DNA from: a virus
Strand: one strand, 5' to 3'
IMG/VR virus record: IMGVR_UViG_3300011113_000123
Coordinates: 32,001 to 96,000 of that record
DNA: 64,000 nt
Positions 13,113 to 37,414 of this stretch are shown in pieces (positions within the stretch are counted from its first letter, which is position 1; each line of letters starts with the position of its first letter). The position numbers and the translations under genes were made by a program. A model generated the notes under the pieces. That model did not search any database. It was not told the origin of the DNA and worked only from the letters and a program-made list of their open reading frames with translations.

Positions 13113-14595
13113 CGTAACTCTGACTAAGGTAAATGAAGCATTCATGCGCGTGGACGGGAACGCGGGTATCGTGCGTGAAGTTGCTGACTATCTTACGTTT
13201 GAAGTTCCTGGTGCTAAGTTTTCGCCGAAGTATAAATCAAGAGTCTGGGACGGTAAGATTCGCTTGCTTAACTCACGCAACATGCAATGTTACGCTGGTC
13301 TTGCTCACAACGTAAAGTCATTCTGTGAAGAGAATGGGTTCAGCGTTTCTATTGATCATGAACTCATTATGACTGAGGAGTTTTCACTTGAAGAAGCTAA
13401 AGATTTCGCTGCCACCTTGGGATTACCTTTTCAGCCTAATCCTCATCAGCTTCGCGCTTTTGCACTTGCTGTTCGCAATAGTCGTGGGATCCTTGTTAGT
13501 CCTACCGCTTCTGGTAAATCCCTAATAGTATATCTCATCACGAGGTATTACAATGCTCGTACTCTTATTATTGTTCCAAATATTTCTTTGGTTAATCAGC
13601 TTGCCTCTGACTTTGCTGACTATGGTTTTCTTTCCGATACTCATGTCCATCGAATCTACTCAGGGCAAGATAAACAAACGGATAGACAGGTTACCATCTC
13701 AACCTGGCAATCGATTTACGAACTTCCTAAAGCGTATTTCGAACAGTTTGAGGTGGTCATAGGCGACGAGGTACATCTGTTCAAAGCGCAGTCGCTGACT
13801 AAGATCATGACAAACTGCACGGATGTTAAGTATCGCTTTGGTGTCACCGGAACGCTCGACGACTCGCAAGTCAACGAGCTGATACTGAACGGTCTCTTTG
13901 GTCCTACACATAAGATCATCACCACGAAAGAACTGATTGATAGTGGTACGCTCGCTGAAATCAAAATCAAAGTTCTTGTTCTCAGTCATCCTCTCGAAGA
14001 ACGTAAAAAGTTAATCGACAAGACGTATCAAGATGAAATAGAACACATCATCAGCTATAGCCCGCGCAACAAGTTCATTCGCAATCTTGCTCTGTCGCTC
14101 AAGGGTAATACGTTGATTCTCTATTCATACGTTGAGAAGCATGGTGACGTTCTGCAACAGATGATCAAGGAGAAAGCGAACGGACGCAAAGTGTTCTACG
14201 TTCATGGTGGAGTTGATGGTCAAGAACGTGAAGAGATTCGACACATCGTAGAAAAGGAAACGGATGCTATCATCGTAGCTTCTTATGGAACGTTCTCTAC
14301 TGGAATCAACATCAAGAATCTACACAACGTCATCTTCAGTAGCCCCACTAAGAGTCGAATCAGAACGATGCAGTCTGTTGGTCGTGGATTGCGCGTTTCT
14401 GACACAAAAACTTCTATGACCCTATTTGACATTGCAGACGACTTGACGCATAATAAGAAGAAGAACTATACGTTGAACCATCTTATCGAACGTGTCAAGA
14501 TGTATAGCAGTGAAGAGTTCCCCTACGAACTCCACAATATCAAACTCAGGAGCGATAATGCAACAGGGCGAAGTTTATTTTCTGAAGCTGAATAA
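13102..14595 (+). CDS. uvsW: SF2 RNA-DNA/DNA helicase
   Basis: WDGKIRL, SPTASGKS, GDEVH, QSVGRGLR; probable start ATG 13102. Confidence 0.95.
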   Translation: MDSDVTLTKVNEAFMRVDGNAGIVREVADYLTFEVPGAKFSPKYKSRVWDGKIRLLNSRNMQCYAGLAHNVKSFCEENGFSVSIDHELIMTEEFSLEEAKDFAATLGLPFQPNPHQLRAFALAVRNSRGILVSPTASGKSLIVYLITRYYNARTLIIVPNISLVNQLASDFADYGFLSDTHVHRIYSGQDKQTDRQVTISTWQSIYELPKAYFEQFEVVIGDEVHLFKAQSLTKIMTNCTDVKYRFGVTGTLDDSQVNELILNGLFGPTHKIITTKELIDSGTLAEIKIKVLVLSHPLEERKKLIDKTYQDEIEHIISYSPRNKFIRNLALSLKGNTLILYSYVEKHGDVLQQMIKEKANGRKVFYVHGGVDGQEREEIRHIVEKETDAIIVASYGTFSTGINIKNLHNVIFSSPTKSRIRTMQSVGRGLRVSDTKTSMTLFDIADDLTHNKKKNYTLNHLIERVKMYSSEEFPYELHNIKLRSDNATGRSLFSEAE

Positions 14596-14935
14596 CGGAG
14601 AAGATATTCTCTGCCAGCTCATCGGAGACGACGAAGACTATCTGTTCATCACTCAGCCATATCGCGTTGAACTCATGCAGTCTCCAACCACGATGACTGT
14701 AGCCACTACAATCATGCGTTGGCTACCATTTGACAGTTTAATGGATGAGCACGTATGTCTAGATAAGAAAAACGTCTTGACATATATGATAGTTGATGAT
14801 ACAGTAGCTACTAAGTACATGAATACTATCAGTGACGAATCACGTAAAGAACGCGAACAAGTCATGGATCGACTGAGACAAGCTACACATGCAGTTCAAC
14901 GTTCTATGGCTAACACACATGGATCACTACATTGA
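14558..14935 (+). CDS. Conserved hypothetical protein (Sm-like fold likely)
   Basis: AGGAG before ATG 14558; LKLNNGEDI motif; between uvsW and gp55. Confidence 0.65.
   Translation: MQQGEVYFLKLNNGEDILCQLIGDDEDYLFITQPYRVELMQSPTTMTVATTIMRWLPFDSLMDEHVCLDKKNVLTYMIVDDTVATKYMNTISDESRKEREQVMDRLRQATHAVQRSMANTHGSLH
14777..14805 (+). promoter_or_regulatory. Intragenic sigma70-type promoter upstream of gp55
   Basis: TTGACA-N17-TACAGT with TG extension. Confidence 0.55.
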
Positions 14936-18420: not shown

Positions 18421-18953
18421 TGTATGATTTGCTAAAAGGTAACGATCCGCTCCTGAAGAGCGTGTGCCCAGAGTTCGATTTTGAACGTGGATATTTCGAT
18501 GAACAAAGTCTTGCCTTTAACGGAGAAGAGTTATACAATTATCTTCGTGATAAGATGATCGAGCATAAGGGCGTAGGTCTTTCTGCCCCTCAGCTTGGTA
18601 TCATGACTCGCGCGTTCGTGATTGGTAATCCGTCAGACCCAGACAACATCATTGGTATCTTTAATCCTATGATCGTTGACTATAGCGAAGAAACTGTAGT
18701 GTACGAAGAAGGATGTGTCAGCTATCCTGGTATGTTCATCAAGATCAAGCGCCCGCGTTCGATTCGCGTTCGCTATCGTAACTTCAACGGAGAAACTGTA
18801 ACTATTAAGTTCGATGGTTACACAGCGCGAGTGTTTCAGCACGAGTACGATCACCTAAATGGTATTACGTTCCAGCAACGAGCCAATCGTTATCATCTAG
18901 AGCAGGCTCAACGATTCAAAGACAGAGCAGACAGGAAGCTGAAAAGCGCATGA
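18417..18953 (+). CDS. def: Peptide deformylase
   Basis: GVGLSAPQLG, EGCVS, QHEYDHLNG motifs. Confidence 0.93.
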   Translation: MMYDLLKGNDPLLKSVCPEFDFERGYFDEQSLAFNGEELYNYLRDKMIEHKGVGLSAPQLGIMTRAFVIGNPSDPDNIIGIFNPMIVDYSEETVVYEEGCVSYPGMFIKIKRPRSIRVRYRNFNGETVTIKFDGYTARVFQHEYDHLNGITFQQRANRYHLEQAQRFKDRADRKLKSA

Positions 18954-20089
18954 GTAACTATCAGCCGTATACCGTAGAAGACGTGCGACGTTCATCGTCT
19001 CGCGAACTGTTCACTGTAATTTCAACGTTCGCTGGAGGCGGAGGATCTTCGACTGGGTATCGGCTTGCAGGCGGGAAAGTTGTCGCGATCAACGAGTTCG
19101 TTGAGGAAGCAGTAGCTACCTATTCGCGCAACTTTCCCGATACGAAAGTGATTCTTGGGGATATTAAGAACATCACCGGAACAGATCTACTCGCTGCAGG
19201 AAATTTGCATCCAGGCGATCTTGATATCCTTGACGGCTCTCCTCCTTGTTCCGCGTTTTCTTCGTCTGGTAAAGGTAAGAAGGGATGGAACAAGGAGAAG
19301 AAATACTCTGACGGAAAGGTCGTAAAGAACATTGAAGATCTATTCCTTGAATATATAAGGATAGCTGAAGATATCAGCCCTAAGGTAATCGTAGCAGAAA
19401 ACGTCGAGGGTATCACCGCTCGCGCTGCGATTGAAAAACTCAGAGAATTCGTAACAGGCTTCGAGCACGTTTCGCCCGGCTACCAAGTAGTCTATCAGGT
19501 GATGGATGCGTCGAAGTTTGGGGTGCCCCAGAGTCGTATGAGAACCTTCTTCGTGGGAGTTAGGAACGATGTGTTCGCGACTCTGGGGCTGGAGGAGTAT
19601 GAGCTCGCTAGACGAGTTTTTCCAGTACCCACTACGAGTGATGGCGTGTCGATTGGTAGCGCGATCGAAGGGATCGAGAACGATCCAGCAGAAGTTCAAA
19701 TGCTCCTGGACTTCTGCGAAACAAGTTTCCAAAAGAAGTTCGTGGAAACTATGCCATTCAATCCTCATAAGGTGTTGAAGCCAGGTCCTGTTAACGGCAA
19801 GACTTCTTGCTTTAACATGAAACGCCCCGCACCCAATCTTCCTTCTCCTACTCTCACACAGATGGGTCAGCAGCGTAGTGCCAGTGGCGTTATGCACTAT
19901 GCTGCGAATAGGAAGTTGACAATCAAAGAAATGAAGCGTATTATGAGTCTTCCTGATGACTACGAGCTGACTGGCACGTTCGATCAGCAGGCTGAACGTA
20001 TTGGTCGAATGGTTGCGCCGAAGATGATGTGCGCTCTAGCCACATCAATCTATGAAAACATCTTGAAACCATATGAGGAATTGCAATGA
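18950..20089 (+). CDS. C5-cytosine DNA methyltransferase family, probable carboxymethyltransferase
   Basis: FAGGGG, GSPPC, ENV, QSRMR, RKLT..EMKR motifs; motif X reads IGRMV instead of IGNAV. Confidence 0.9.
   Translation: MSNYQPYTVEDVRRSSSRELFTVISTFAGGGGSSTGYRLAGGKVVAINEFVEEAVATYSRNFPDTKVILGDIKNITGTDLLAAGNLHPGDLDILDGSPPCSAFSSSGKGKKGWNKEKKYSDGKVVKNIEDLFLEYIRIAEDISPKVIVAENVEGITARAAIEKLREFVTGFEHVSPGYQVVYQVMDASKFGVPQSRMRTFFVGVRNDVFATLGLEEYELARRVFPVPTTSDGVSIGSAIEGIENDPAEVQMLLDFCETSFQKKFVETMPFNPHKVLKPGPVNGKTSCFNMKRPAPNLPSPTLTQMGQQRSASGVMHYAANRKLTIKEMKRIMSLPDDYELTGTFDQQAERIGRMVAPKMMCALATSIYENILKPYEELQ
19916..19944 (+). promoter_or_regulatory. Intragenic sigma70-type promoter upstream of the CmoA-like gene
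   Basis: TTGACA-N17-TATTAT. Confidence 0.45.
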
Positions 20090-20769
20090 CAGGTAAGTTC
20101 ACGTTCGCTACGCGCGAGGAAGGCTTCGACGAGCATATCGACACCTCGATTCGTGGATATGGTGATCTGTGGCGAGACGTAGTTGATATCTCGCAGTATT
20201 TCGTCGAAGATCAGACCATGGTCGTTGACATCGGTTGCTCGACTGGTAAGATGCTAAAGCATATGATCGCGCAGAACAAGTTCGCTCCCCTGGCTATGTA
20301 CGAAGGCGTTGAGATCGAACCTGAGTTCTGGAAGGATTACGACGAAGACGAACGCAACTGGAGTCAGCTCCAGTATCATAAGGGTAGCGTCCTTGACTAC
20401 GACTTCTACAACTGCTCGTACGTGACTAGCATTTTCACGTTGCAGTTCATGTCGTTCAAGGATAGGAAGCAAGTGTTCGAGCAGGTCCATAGAGGACTGT
20501 TGCCAGGCGGAGCGTTTGTGTTCGCAGAAAAAACTATGCCTGAGAGCGTTCGTATCCACGAGATTCGTACGTTCACCTACTACGACTTTAAGCGCAAAAC
20601 GTTTGCGTCTGACGATATCATGGATAAGGAACGTCAGCTTAGGCATATGACCAAGCCCAGCACTCGGCAGGAAATCGTCGATATGTGTCGGAACGCGGGC
20701 TTCACCGTAGTCGACTCGTTCTGGCAGAACCACGCTTTTACCGGCTTTATCGCTCTTAAGAATCCATAA
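20086..20769 (+). CDS. cmoA: CmoA-like carboxy-S-adenosylmethionine synthase
   Basis: FDEHIDTSIRGY, DIGCSTG, FTLQF, PGGAFVFAEK resemble CmoA-family motifs; ATGA overlap with the MTase. Confidence 0.8.
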   Translation: MTGKFTFATREEGFDEHIDTSIRGYGDLWRDVVDISQYFVEDQTMVVDIGCSTGKMLKHMIAQNKFAPLAMYEGVEIEPEFWKDYDEDERNWSQLQYHKGSVLDYDFYNCSYVTSIFTLQFMSFKDRKQVFEQVHRGLLPGGAFVFAEKTMPESVRIHEIRTFTYYDFKRKTFASDDIMDKERQLRHMTKPSTRQEIVDMCRNAGFTVVDSFWQNHAFTGFIALKNP

Positions 20770-28184: not shown

Positions 28185-28850
28185 ATGATGAAGCTATCTA
28201 AAGAAACCACAGAAATCCTCAAGAACTTCGCGGCTATCAATCCTTCTCTCATCTTCGTTCCTGGAACTGTACAGAAGACGATGAGTCCACAGAAGACTGT
28301 GATGGCTAAGGCTAACGTCGCTGAGTCATTCAGTAAGGAGTTTGCTATCTACGATCTTACCCAGTTCATCTCGACTGTTTCTTCGTTCGAAGATCCAGAT
28401 CTCAAGTTGGGTGATGATCGAGTGACGATCACTAATGGTAAGGGGTCGGCTGACATTCGCTATGCTAAGTCTGACCTCATCAAGTCGCCCACGAAGGAAG
28501 TGAATCTTTCTTCTGTCGATATCAGCTATACGATTGAAGCTTCTGCGTTGCAGAGCGCTCTCCGCATGGCTGGCGTGCTTTCTCTTCCTGAGATTGCGCT
28601 CATTGGTCGTGATGGTGTAGCGTATCTCGCTGCTATCGATTCTCGTAACGAAGGATCTAATACCTTCATGTACGAAGTTGGTACGGCTGAAGCCAACTAT
28701 CGTATGATCTTCAAGTCTGAGAATCTCAAGCTCTTGAATCGTGATTACGAAGTTCGTGTTTCTGCTAAGGGTATCTCGCATTTCAAGTCGAAGACTGGAG
28801 ATGTTGAATACTGGATTGTTGCTGAGCAGGGTAGCAAGTACGGCGAGTGA
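28185..28850 (+). CDS. gp45: Sliding clamp
   Basis: MKLSKETTEILKNFAAINPS, FAIYDL..F, YWIVAE. Confidence 0.95.
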   Translation: MMKLSKETTEILKNFAAINPSLIFVPGTVQKTMSPQKTVMAKANVAESFSKEFAIYDLTQFISTVSSFEDPDLKLGDDRVTITNGKGSADIRYAKSDLIKSPTKEVNLSSVDISYTIEASALQSALRMAGVLSLPEIALIGRDGVAYLAAIDSRNEGSNTFMYEVGTAEANYRMIFKSENLKLLNRDYEVRVSAKGISHFKSKTGDVEYWIVAEQGSKYGE

Positions 28851-31891: not shown

Positions 31892-32041
31892 ATGTTAGAA
31901 CGAGTGTCACAAGCATATCAATACTACAAAACAATCTTCGAACTCGCTCGCTTATCCGACCAGGATCTGGAGCAGTTAGGTTTGTCGAGATCTGAAATCG
32001 TATTCGTTGCATATAAAGCTATTCTGGTGCAACATGATTGA
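31892..32041 (+). CDS. DUF1127 (YjiS-like) small protein
   Basis: AGGAG RBS; KTIFELARLSDQDLEQLGLSRSEI fits the DUF1127 pattern. Confidence 0.7.
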   Translation: MLERVSQAYQYYKTIFELARLSDQDLEQLGLSRSEIVFVAYKAILVQHD

Positions 32042-33602: not shown

Positions 33603-36122
33603 ATGACGAAATTCTACACGAATGCAATTGAGTACGGTAACAACATCCTCGTCCGCGGTTACGATCGCGGGCGCCCTTTCAATGAAAAGATTCCCTACAA
33701 ACCAACTCTGTTCCTACCGTCCAAGCGCAAGGATCTTGCGACGTGGAAAGACATCGTGGGTAACACGCTTGATCCTATGCCATTTGACTCTATGCGCGAT
33801 GCTAAGGATTTCATCAAGCGATACGAGGACGTCAGCAACTTCAAGCTGTATGGTATGCCTCGCTTTCTGTATGCGTATCTGAACGAAGAGTATCCTAACG
33901 AAATCGCATACGACCAAGATCTAATCAAGGTTGCGTATATCGACATCGAGGTTAGCTCAGAGTTTGGCTTTCCTACGGTTGAGCGCGCGTCTGATACTGT
34001 TACGGCTATCACGCTCAAGAAAGACGGCGTCTTCCATGTGTGGGGATACGGCGACTTCAGGCCCAATCGCAACGACGTTCAGTATTACCAATGCAACAAC
34101 GAAAAGGAACTGCTACTCAAGTTCCTCAGTGAGTGGAGCTTAGATTATCCTGATCTCGTGACTGGCTGGAACGTCACGTTCTTCGATATTCCTTATCTCG
34201 TTCGTCGTATGAGCGCGGTGCTTGGTGAAAACGAAGCAAAACGCTTTTCGCCATGGCGCATCTTTAAGGAACGTCGTGTTCGTACGAAGTTTGGTAAAGA
34301 AGAATCCGTCTACAACATCGCTGGCGTTGCTACTCTCGACTATCTCGAGATGTATCAGAAGTTCACTTATACTCAGCAAGAAAGCTACAAGCTCGATCAC
34401 ATCGCGTTCGTTGAACTCGGTGAGCGCAAGCTATCGTACGACGAATACGAAACGTTGCATGAGTTCTATATGAATGACTTCCAGCGATTCATCGAGTATA
34501 ACATTCGAGACGTTGAGCTCGTCGAAAAGCTCGACGATAAGATGAAGCTCATATCCATGGCTCTCGCGCTAGCGTACGACGCGAAGGTGACTTTGCTTGA
34601 TGTGTTCACACAAGTTCGTATGTGGGACGTTATCATTCACAATCACCTGTACAAGCAAGGTATCGCTGTACCTATCGAAGGTGGCGGATCTAAAGACGAA
34701 GCGTATGTTGGCGCGTTCGTCAAAGAACCTAAGCCTGGTGGATATGACTGGGTTATGTCATTCGACTTGAACTCTCTGTATCCGCATCTTATCATGCAGT
34801 ACAACATCTCTCCCGAAACGTTGCTGCGTGATGGTCGCAATCGCGCAGTGAAGATTGATGTAACAGTGGATGAACTGCTCGATGGTCATATCCCTGAAGT
34901 TCCAGAAGGATATGGTCTAGCTGCGAACGGCTGTTTCTTCAGCAAAGCGCGTCAGGGTTTCTTGCCTGAGATCATGGAGCGTATGTACAACGATCGTGTC
35001 GTCTACAAAGATAAGATGATCGCTGCTCAGAAAGATTATGAAAAGACTAAGTCTAAGCAAGCATCCAAGGATATCTCTCGATACAAAAACATGCAGCTCG
35101 CTAAGAAGGTTCAGTTGAACTCAGCTTACGGCGCGATTGGTAATCCTCACTTCCGTTTCTTCGATATCAATCAAGCGACGGCTATTACTCTTGGTGGTCA
35201 GCTATCTATCCGCTGGGCTGAAAACGAAATCAATAAGTATCTTAATAAGCTCCTAAAGACTAAGGATACGGACTATGTCATTGCTTCCGATACGGATTCG
35301 TTGTATATCAGTTTTGATAGACTTGTACAAGTGGTCTTTGAAGGTCGAGGATCGCAGCAAAGTGATCCTACAGCACAGAAGCAGAAAATCGTTGACTTTC
35401 TGGACAAGGTGGCTCGTGAAAAGATTGAACCTGTTATTGATGGGATTTATTCGGATCTTGCTGTTCGGATGGAAGCATTCTCGCAAAAAATGAACATGAA
35501 GCGTGAGGTTATCGCTGATCGTGGTATCTGGACTGCGAAGAAGCGATACATCCTCAACGTTCATGACTCTGAAGGTGTGCGATACGCCAAACCCAAACTA
35601 AAGATCATGGGCATCGAAGCTGTTAAGTCGTCGACTCCTGCTGTGTGTCGTCAGGCAATTATCGATGCGCTGAACATCATCATGTCTAAAGAAGAAGAGG
35701 ACTTGCATAAGTTCATCGCTGACTTCAAGTCTAAGTTCTACAAGCTGAGCTTCGAGGAAGTTGCGTTTCCGCGTTCCGTACAAGATCTAACTAAATACGC
35801 AAAGGAAACTAAGAGCATTCCTATCCACGTTCGTGGCGCGTTGCTCTATAACAATCTAGTCAAGAAGCTTAGTCTACAGAAAAAGTACGAGCTTATCAAG
35901 GATGGCGAAAAGATTCGCTTCTCATACTTGAAGATGCCTAATCCTGCTCGCGACAACGTGATTTGTGCGTTTTCATCTTTACCGTCAGAGTTCGACCTTG
36001 AAGAGTATATCGATTATGATATGCAGTTCGAGAAAGCGTTTATGGCTCCTCTCAACTCTATCCTTGAAGTGATTGACTGGCACTCTGAGAAGCGAAGCTC
36101 ATTGGAGGACTTCTTTTCATGA
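33603..36122 (+). CDS. gp43: Family B DNA polymerase
   Basis: DIEV exo I, SFDLNSLYPH, KVQLNSAYG, ASDTDS, KKRY. Confidence 0.98.
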   Translation: MTKFYTNAIEYGNNILVRGYDRGRPFNEKIPYKPTLFLPSKRKDLATWKDIVGNTLDPMPFDSMRDAKDFIKRYEDVSNFKLYGMPRFLYAYLNEEYPNEIAYDQDLIKVAYIDIEVSSEFGFPTVERASDTVTAITLKKDGVFHVWGYGDFRPNRNDVQYYQCNNEKELLLKFLSEWSLDYPDLVTGWNVTFFDIPYLVRRMSAVLGENEAKRFSPWRIFKERRVRTKFGKEESVYNIAGVATLDYLEMYQKFTYTQQESYKLDHIAFVELGERKLSYDEYETLHEFYMNDFQRFIEYNIRDVELVEKLDDKMKLISMALALAYDAKVTLLDVFTQVRMWDVIIHNHLYKQGIAVPIEGGGSKDEAYVGAFVKEPKPGGYDWVMSFDLNSLYPHLIMQYNISPETLLRDGRNRAVKIDVTVDELLDGHIPEVPEGYGLAANGCFFSKARQGFLPEIMERMYNDRVVYKDKMIAAQKDYEKTKSKQASKDISRYKNMQLAKKVQLNSAYGAIGNPHFRFFDINQATAITLGGQLSIRWAENEINKYLNKLLKTKDTDYVIASDTDSLYISFDRLVQVVFEGRGSQQSDPTAQKQKIVDFLDKVAREKIEPVIDGIYSDLAVRMEAFSQKMNMKREVIADRGIWTAKKRYILNVHDSEGVRYAKPKLKIMGIEAVKSSTPAVCRQAIIDALNIIMSKEEEDLHKFIADFKSKFYKLSFEEVAFPRSVQDLTKYAKETKSIPIHVRGALLYNNLVKKLSLQKKYELIKDGEKIRFSYLKMPNPARDNVICAFSSLPSEFDLEEYIDYDMQFEKAFMAPLNSILEVIDWHSEKRSSLEDFFS

Positions 36123-36331
36123 AGAAAAAGACTAAGAAACCCGCAAGGAAACCAACTCGCAACGATCTAGATAAGATGTCGTATGAAAAGCGAGAACGAG
36201 TAAGAAAACAGCTAAGAAAAGGGGCTGTATATACAAGAGCGTTCAAGACACCACAATCATTCGGTGCAGCCAGTCCAGTTAGACATGTTCCGATTGAAGA
36301 GTATTTGAAAGAAATCAAGAGTGATTCGTGA
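36119..36331 (+). CDS. Small basic hypothetical protein
   Basis: ATGA overlap with gp43; GGAGG RBS. Confidence 0.55.
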   Translation: MKKKTKKPARKPTRNDLDKMSYEKRERVRKQLRKGAVYTRAFKTPQSFGAASPVRHVPIEEYLKEIKSDS

Positions 36332-37130
36332 AATCTTAGTGCATCAGGTAGATGCTATGTCTCACGACAGCCGCGTAGCTGTTCTACTATCAGGCGGAGT
36401 CGATAGTGTATCTATTGCGTTTGCTGCGCATCGGCTCGGAAAGAAGGTAGTCGCTTACACGTTTCATCTCGATGGTCAGCCATCATATGATTCGCAGAAA
36501 GCAGTCGAGATCGCAAAGATCATGGAATGGGATTATCGTGTCGTGGTAGTCCCAACCAATAACGTAGAGCAAGACTTCATTCGTTTGGCTAAAGAAGTTC
36601 ACTGCGAAAAGAAAACACACTTCGAGTGTTGCTTTCCGTTTCTATACGTGTACCCACAGATCAAGGAGTATGAAGTTCTAAGTGGATGGGCTGCTGACGG
36701 ATACTATGGTGTATCGAAAAAAGCGAACATTCACTACAAGCATACGAAGGAAAAGTTCGACGAGTTTCGTAAAGACTACTTTGGTGCTAACAATCGCGCT
36801 GGATATATGTGGCATAAACGAATCGCGGAGAAGTTGCATAGCAAACGATTCATTGCTCCGTATCTAGATCCAGACGTTGCTAAGTTCTTTATGAGCAAAG
36901 ATTGGTATGAACTGAATCAGCCATATCAAAAGCATCATGTAGTCGAAGCATTCACTGAGTTCAAGCAGATTGGTGGTGTGAAGAAACATATCAATCTGCA
37001 ACTAGGATCAGGAATAGATAAGCTATTCGAGAAAGAAGTATTGAGCAACACCAATCTTAATTTTTACAATCGCAAGCGAGTTATGGACGTATGTCGTGAC
37101 TGGGCAAACAAAGGAGCAGAGTTGTGGTAA
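36321..37130 (+). CDS. Stand-alone asparagine-synthetase-like ATP-dependent amide ligase
   Basis: PP-loop LLSGGVDS, VLSGWAADGYYG, APYLD; no glutaminase domain. Confidence 0.8.
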   Translation: MIREILVHQVDAMSHDSRVAVLLSGGVDSVSIAFAAHRLGKKVVAYTFHLDGQPSYDSQKAVEIAKIMEWDYRVVVVPTNNVEQDFIRLAKEVHCEKKTHFECCFPFLYVYPQIKEYEVLSGWAADGYYGVSKKANIHYKHTKEKFDEFRKDYFGANNRAGYMWHKRIAEKLHSKRFIAPYLDPDVAKFFMSKDWYELNQPYQKHHVVEAFTEFKQIGGVKKHINLQLGSGIDKLFEKEVLSNTNLNFYNRKRVMDVCRDWANKGAELW

Positions 37131-37414
37131 AAGTGCCGCAGGAGTATGCTGACTTCGACTTCGGTTTCACTGGAGTTGATGAGAGTGAAATCAAACAAGA
37201 TGTTCTGAGAGAGCTGACTGCTAAGGACGAAGCTCTGTCAGCAAAGGAACTGGAGCTGGCTGATAAGGTAAAGACGCTTGAAGCTATCATCGTCCCTCTG
37301 CTGAACAACCTAATCAAGACAGCGGATAAGGAATACATCTACTGGCCTAATCGTAAAGAAAAGTGTCAGGATATGTTGGAAAAGGTATTGAAGACCACTA
37401 GAGGGGTCAAATGA
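37124..37414 (+). CDS. Hypothetical protein
   Basis: DFDFGFT..., PLLNNL...YIYWPNR; AGGAG RBS. Confidence 0.65.
   Translation: MVKVPQEYADFDFGFTGVDESEIKQDVLRELTAKDEALSAKELELADKVKTLEAIIVPLLNNLIKTADKEYIYWPNRKEKCQDMLEKVLKTTRGVK

Follow-up and report, generated by a model that had tools for sequence, protein, structure and literature searches.

A gene for an enzyme resembling asparagine synthetase lies close behind the DNA polymerase gene of a T4-like phage, and the question raised by this locus is what such an enzyme would amidate there. The window considered here is a stretch of 64,000 nucleotides from an IMG/VR virus record (IMGVR_UViG_3300011113_000123, positions 32,001 to 96,000). The original prediction, read from the letters of the window, was that the enzyme acts on the carboxyl group of 5-carboxymethylcytosine (5cxmC) made by a pair of genes elsewhere in the window. 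This idea is not new: the enzyme family was published in December 2025 (PMC12783734), and the window gene is a further member of it, the CmoY family. The proposed chemistry has already been demonstrated for phage S-B43, and our result by itself opens no new question. Our additions are modest and consist of fusion proteins, two alternative sites for the gene cassette together with a split layout, and a pattern in the C-terminal tails.

Gene, domain and fold of the putative ligase

The gene is a single plus-strand open reading frame encoding 269 residues (Table 1), and all three of the motifs quoted in the original prediction were found in it: SGGVDS at residues 24-29, SGWAADGYYG at 121-130, and PYLD at 180-183. 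The start codon in the list of open reading frames is GTG, and it is backed by homologues that align from residue 1. The gene is the second one 3' of gp43, which encodes a family-B DNA polymerase; only the 70-residue orf70 stands in between, in keeping with the predicted position two genes after gp43. In the window, gp43, orf70, cmoY, and the reading frame at 37124-37414 (orf96) overlap by a few bases each and therefore form one translationally coupled string. Because this string is led by the DNA polymerase gene, cmoY is probably expressed together with the replication genes. No family match was found for orf70, which is seen only in this genome and is absent from 43 of 43 related loci, where cmoY comes directly after gp43.

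Table 1. Features of the window discussed in the text, with positions in the window
Feature	Position	Strand	Basis
cmoX homologue, putative DNA cytosine C5-carboxymethyltransferase; SPPC motif, motif-X Arg353	18950..20089	+	homology, PF00145
cmoA homologue, putative carboxy-SAM synthase; shares its first 4 nt with the end of cmoX	20086..20769	+	homology, phrog_4752
gp43, DNA polymerase; heads the overlapping string gp43-orf70-cmoY-orf96	33603..36122	+	C-terminus SSLEDFFS
orf70, 70 aa, Lys/Arg-rich; between gp43 and cmoY, overlapping both	36119..36331	+	ORF list
cmoY homologue, putative ATP-dependent amide ligase, 269 aa; asparagine-synthetase synthetase domain only	36321..37130	+	ORF list, Pfam PF00733, homology, AlphaFold, fold
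PP-loop ATP pyrophosphatase motif SGGVDS, residues 24-29 of CmoY	36390..36407	+	read from sequence
orf96, 96 aa, translationally coupled to cmoY	37124..37414	+	ORF list; tail comparison

The Pfam family Asn_synthase (PF00733) covers residues 2-155 of the window protein (E 2.2e-14). In a profile search of PDB sequences, E. coli AsnB (1ct9) was matched with an E value of 1e-13, from AsnB residue 209 onward. This start lies past the glutaminase domain, so only the synthetase half is present, and the original description of the protein as a synthetase domain alone is borne out. No GATase_7 or other glutaminase domain was found in the whole 157.6-kb genome record, which is approximately 90% complete, nor was a close cmoY paralogue found in that record. 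There was one sub-threshold Asn_synthase-like match (E 0.003), at positions 14325-14609 of G000 and outside the window. Among PHROGs, the protein matches phrog_26038, a family of unknown function (E 7.8e-33).

An AlphaFold2 model built from an alignment of 77 sequences was very confident (pLDDT 96.6, pTM 0.92). In Foldseek searches with the whole chain, the matches were to the synthetase domains of beta-lactam synthetase (E 5e-10, TM 0.72) and AsnB (TM 0.75), and also to human ASNS and carbapenam synthetase. In the PP-loop, where ATP would be bound, S24, G26, D28, and S29 are kept in 241 to 244 of 245 homologues. All of the family-wide residues are intact in the window protein (S24, G26, D28, S29, D57, K98, E102, G122, D126, R150, P180, K204, H223, and Q227).

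Comparison with enzymes of known mechanism indicates what the fold could do. AsnB and human ASNS (1CT9 and 6GQ3) share with the window protein the fold, the SGGxDS PP-loop, and the Asp of SGxxxD, which is D126 here and D351 in AsnB, and they act through an acyl-adenylate, as we would expect of the window enzyme. However, identity to AsnB is about 16%, the window protein has no N-terminal glutaminase domain, AsnB E348 is replaced by Trp123, and the acyl substrate of AsnB is aspartate whereas that of the window enzyme would be a modified base in DNA. Beta-lactam and carbapenam synthetases (1MC1, 1JGT, 1Q15), the source of the best Foldseek matches, derive from AsnB; they adenylate a carboxylate, and the nitrogen nucleophile that they employ is not ammonia. 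They differ in having a vestigial N-terminal domain, in forming an intramolecular amide (a lactam), and in acting on small molecules.

These relationships also allow for an enzyme of small molecules or RNA, such as an asparagine synthetase that relies on ammonia, a PP-loop enzyme (QueC-like or otherwise), or a tRNA enzyme working with CmoA on nucleosides of the cmo5U type. Source databases call homologues "asparagine synthetase B", there are weak PP-loop matches to QueC, ThiI, and NadE (Pfam) and to LarE (among the Pfam and NCBIfam models), and the cellular role of CmoA is in tRNA modification. We consider such an enzyme very unlikely here, as the window protein scores far under the curated cut-offs of these families. 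With the AsnB model (TIGR01536), it reached 42.9 bits against a cut-off of 267.1, with only model positions 238-370 matched and no glutaminase domain. With the QueC model (TIGR00364), it reached 23 bits against 150.3, and the Pfam QueC match comprises residues 20-78, the PP-loop region; LarE, ThiI, and NadE scored far under their curated cut-offs. Apart from that to AsnB, the matches span only the N-terminal nucleotide-binding part. A close homologue, moreover, acts on DNA in vitro.

The characterised CmoY pathway and the likely product

That homologue belongs to the CmoA-CmoX-CmoY pathway of Synechococcus phage S-B43 (Yang et al., Nat Commun 2025, December; PMC12783734). In this pathway, CmoA makes carboxy-SAM, and CmoX, a homologue of C5-methylases with an SPPC motif and with Arg350 replacing the motif-X Asn, carboxymethylates cytosine in GC sites; its crystal structure is 8YF3 (PMC12783734). 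The ligase, SpCmoY, couples glycine to the 5cxmC of DNA in a reaction that needs ATP, as seen in E. coli as well as in vitro; in native DNA of S-B43, the glycine amide 5gcxmdC (m/z 343.1) is present while free 5cxmdC is absent (PMC12783734). The source data place cmoY at 147774-148589 of S-B43 (PMC12783734).

When 50,697 phage records were searched by tblastn, the window protein matched best in the Synechococcus phages S-B05, S-B43, and RB11-B, with 51.5% identity across 99% of its length (E 1e-76). The gene matched in S-B43 is the one at 147774-148589, and the S-B05 protein is 100% identical to that of S-B43. In the published similarity network, ligases are joined at an E value of 1e-56, or about 30% identity (PMC12783734); our pairwise comparison with S-B43 CmoY gave an E value of 4e-91, which is on another database scale than the 1e-56 of the network, and 51% identity over 99% of the length, which is well over 30%. 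A likeness of this order is well outside what chance would give. The two proteins (A0A514ABJ0 in S-B43) are of similar length, at 271 and 269 residues, both consist of the synthetase domain with its PP-loop and nothing more, and both genes are found among the replication genes of a T4-like phage. The partners are related as well. The window CmoX is 49% identical to that of S-B05 and S-B43, retains the SPPC cysteine (C100), and has Arg353 aligned to R350 of SpCmoX; it matches PF00145 and the sequence of the crystal structure 8YF3 (E 9e-104). The window CmoA is 47% identical to that of S-B05 and S-B43 and 52% identical to the homologue in S-CRM01.

From the S-B43 enzyme, to which the observed homology, fold, motif conservation, and gene linkage connect the window protein, we infer its chemistry, its DNA substrate, and its amine. 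The window protein is very probably a CmoY orthologue, the last enzyme of the CmoA-CmoX-CmoY pathway of cytosine hypermodification, and in all likelihood it amidates 5cxmC in DNA. The core of the original prediction, that the carboxyl group made by the gene pair at 18950-20769 is adenylated and then amidated, is supported by the activity shown for SpCmoY. CmoA would convert SAM and prephenate to carboxy-SAM, and CmoX would place the carboxymethyl group on C5 of cytosines in the phage DNA. CmoY would then bind ATP at its PP-loop and adenylate the new carboxylate, giving 5cxmC-AMP and PPi, after which attack by an amine would displace AMP and leave an amide. With glycine, the likeliest amine, the product would be 5-glycylcarboxymethylcytosine; otherwise, another alpha-amino acid may be used.

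Glycine is our best guess for the amine, and we hold it with modest confidence. It is based on the window protein falling into the SpCmoY cluster by the network threshold, a cluster said by the authors to keep the residues that bind the glycine carboxylate (PMC12783734), and on a tree. The tree, a quick IQ-TREE version, places the window protein and SpCmoY in one clade of 27 rows, apart from the type found in Erwinia jumbo phages, with an SH-aLRT of 92 that is below the tool's mark of 95. It is also based on the absence from the window protein of the glutaminase domain carried by predicted users of ammonia. These are the CmoX-associated ligases of the A0A7T0Q3R0 cluster (PMC12783734), which occur with CmoX and CmoA and, like the window enzyme, are presumed to amidate 5cxmC. 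They have a glutamine-hydrolysing domain of their own, an architecture absent from the window protein, and their predicted product is the simple amide put forward in the original prediction. The alternative offered there, an amine-conjugated cytosine, agrees with the characterised homologue, while the simple amide (dC +57 Da) does not: with glycine added, the expected shift is likely to be dC +115 Da, for a nucleoside with [M+H]+ 343.1. Amidation had also been proposed to remove the extra negative charge before packaging. A glycine amide retains a carboxylate and therefore the negative charge stays, so that this rationale fails if the amine is glycine.

However, an identity of 51% leaves the amine specificity unfixed. 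The same reaction on 5cxmC could use another amino acid, ammonia (giving 5-carbamoylmethylcytosine, +57 Da), or a polyamine, in which case the window phage and S-B43 would end up with different bases. Two differences between the proteins speak for this. Residues 155-167 (36783-36821) are of the form NRAGYxWHxR in the window protein and of a Gln-rich type (N-V-T-G-F-R-Q) in SpCmoY, a difference in kind, and position 123, aligned to AsnB E348, is Trp in the former and Ile in the latter. Over the 245 homologues, the loop is of two types, that of the window protein, with Trp164 in 106 sequences and His165 in 118, and an SpCmoY-like one, N-P-A-G-x-x-Q-Q; its counterpart in AsnB is residues 381-390, and it may be a specificity loop that lines the substrate site. 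Variety of amines in the family is further hinted at by an Erwinia jumbo-phage CmoY-like gene that stands beside DUF1611 and alanine-racemase-like genes. Against another amine stand the network cluster and tree clade shared with the glycine enzyme, and against ammonia in particular the lack of a glutaminase domain in both the protein and the genome record. We regard a different amine as possible, if doubtful.

Linkage of cmoY to cmoX and cmoA

The family is large. A scan of 1.84 billion cluster representatives returned 664 clusters at 50% identity (E<=1e-3). The result confirms that the published pathway reaches into uncultured T4-like phages, which abound in metagenomes. We scanned 43 related IMG/VR loci with the proteins of the window. 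In 26 of the 43, cmoX is beside cmoY or within about 2.5 kb of it, with or without cmoA, and most of the remaining loci end within a few hundred bases of cmoY and are too short to tell. One locus (L043) had only a distant CmoA-like gene and a weak methylase-like match. Among isolated phages, the collection of 50,697 records contains a CmoY-like gene in 58 and a CmoA-like gene in 67. CmoA accompanies CmoY in 51 of the 58 as confirmed by accession, and in 6 more as inferred from equal genus counts; Salmonella phage Sen-NF, with a CmoY-like protein of 24.6% identity, is the sole record of the 58 without a CmoA-like gene. The 58 records span at least five unrelated groups (Kyanoviridae, Erwinia and Dickeya jumbo phages, PaBG, a Yersinia jumbo phage, and a staphylococcal siphovirus). 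An absence of co-occurrence across phages would have spoken against the original prediction; instead, linkage is found in 26 of 43 loci and CmoA in about 57 of 58 records.

Five proteins of the 664-cluster set are fusions of a CmoY-like domain with a C5-methylase domain. The CmoY-like domain comes first in P0167, P0183, and P0180, and the methylase domain comes first in P0184 and P0185. The full-length fusions (P0167, P0183, P0184, and P0185) keep the SPPC motif and the motif-X Arg, and P0180, with a partial methylase domain, falls outside the alignment. These fusions are not mentioned in PMC12783734. Together with the near-complete co-occurrence, fusions in both orders provide independent genomic support for the link between enzyme and substrate. 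Fusion to CmoX-type DNA methylases and a near-obligatory linkage to cmoX also point to DNA, and away from small molecules or RNA, as the substrate.

While linkage is the rule, the arrangement of the genes differs. The commonest order among the related loci is gp43-cmoY-cmoX-cmoA-uvsX-gp41. A second cassette site has the order gp46-PDF-cmoY-cmoX-cmoA in L037, and L031 and L041 are similar. In S-B05, S-B43, and RB11-B, cmoY is flanked, with overlaps on both sides, by the genes of a small methyltransferase and of a DNA cytosine methyltransferase, so that in S-B43 it stands between its partners, whereas the window cmoY is 16 kb away from cmoX-cmoA. In the window and in its kin L004-L010 (86-88% identical), cmoY stands on its own behind gp43, and two long relatives, G001 and G002, encode a 91%-identical CmoX about 16 kb upstream of cmoY, as in the window. 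The lineage of the window thus divides the cassette over two sites, each of which is used elsewhere for the whole cassette.

A gene detached from cmoX-cmoA in this way could be a remnant of the splitting of the cassette, inactive or in the course of decay, in which case the phage DNA would carry plain 5cxmC. Some phages, such as S-CRM01, do have CmoA and CmoX and no CmoY-like gene, and the window protein has lost the polymerase-type tail of its nearest relatives (see below). We consider this very unlikely. The reading frame is intact, every family-invariant residue is kept, and the predicted structure is modelled with very high confidence. Furthermore, the same split layout occurs with 86-91% identical proteins in several independent contigs, which indicates purifying selection.

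Several further arrangements were seen in the course of this comparison. CmoA-like genes are present in S-CRM01 (HQ615693.1, NC_015569.1), Staphylococcus SPbeta-like phages, Gordonia phage Evaa, and Alcaligenes phage Afa-NA1, in which no CmoY-like gene was found at E<=1e-3; in S-CRM01, a DNA methylase gene adjoins the CmoA-like gene. Such phages may contain plain 5cxmC or may use another ligase. L037 (9573-11872) has a tandem pair of CmoX-like genes between cmoY and cmoA, with 64% and 55% identity to that of the window; the pair may represent two sequence specificities. The 413-residue protein P0223 has a CmoY-like domain followed by a sub-threshold match to the uracil-DNA-glycosylase superfamily (E 1.6e-4), which could make it a ligase with a base-flipping module attached. 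In Alexandravirus jumbo phages, as in Erwinia phage pEa_SNUABM_1 (L002, 3981-9480), three genes separate the CmoA-like from the CmoY-like gene. They encode a 420-residue unknown protein, a DUF1611 protein, and an alanine-racemase-N-like protein, and no PF00145 methylase was found among the six open reading frames scanned there. This cassette suggests that another amine is used, which may be a modified or D-amino acid, and perhaps another transferase as well.

C-terminal tails and the sliding clamp

In every locus compared, gp43 ends in [S/T/N]-L-E/D-x-F-F-x. Many T4-like CmoY proteins (L007-L023, L031-L037, and many of the P entries) end in [S/T/N]-L-x-x-F-[F/L/M/I/Y], of the same type as the gp43 of their own locus. 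The residue before the Leu covaries between the two tails of a locus: TLEDFFS in gp43 is paired with TLEDFF(S) in CmoY, NLEDFFV with NLEAFIL, and SLEDFFV with SLEQFYV. A clamp-type tail was never seen on CmoX or CmoA in the tail comparison. A second class of CmoY tail, G-x-L-P-[I/V/L], is represented by SpCmoY, whose C-terminus reads GQGTLPL.

Whether a tailed CmoY would bind the sliding clamp was approached by structure prediction. The window encodes its own gp45 at 28185-28850. The complex of the gp45 trimer with the tailed CmoY of G002 scored 0.59, against 0.01 for the best of three controls. Of 80 solved complexes, 58 attain the mark for a complex, as do 2 of 110 mismatched pairs; scores of 0.60 or less account for only 7 of the 80 solved complexes but for both of the mismatches that pass. 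The runs agreed in at least 91% of contacts, and the pLDDT of the partner was at least 82. This model hints that the tailed CmoY of G002 may bind the gp45 trimer. The structure of RB69 gp45 with the C-terminal peptide of the polymerase has been solved, and therefore the pass may reflect memory of that complex.

The window CmoY itself has no polymerase-type clamp tail. It ends in NKGAELW, while its own gp43 ends in SSLEDFFS, and this ending also differs from that of S-B43 CmoY. Its closest relatives (L007-L010 and P0002-P0006) end in TLEDFF-type tails, and because the nearest neighbours in the tree are all tailed, the absence is a derived one. The last six codons of the window cmoY consist of the AAAGGAG ribosome site and the GTG start of orf96. 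The NKGAELW ending recurs in P0087, a homologue of only 59% identity, and is therefore a junction module rather than damage. A frameshift hiding a TLEDFF tail was looked for in the three frames after the stop codon, and none was found.

The window genome is a natural variant, in which the ligase gene is apart from its partners and the clamp-type tail is absent, and the split gene and missing tail are useful for asking whether amidation is coupled to replication. A more speculative picture, which we think rather unlikely as a whole, would have the last step tethered to the clamp in the relatives, the tail traded for a coupling junction in the window, and a non-glycine amide, which would be an undescribed cytosine, as the product.

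The downstream gene of this junction, orf96, has no Pfam or PHROG family and is conserved 3' of cmoY in L004-L010. Its N-terminus, VPQEYADFDFGFTG, is kept in the same loci and resembles an aromatic motif of the clamp-binding type, placed at the N-terminal end.
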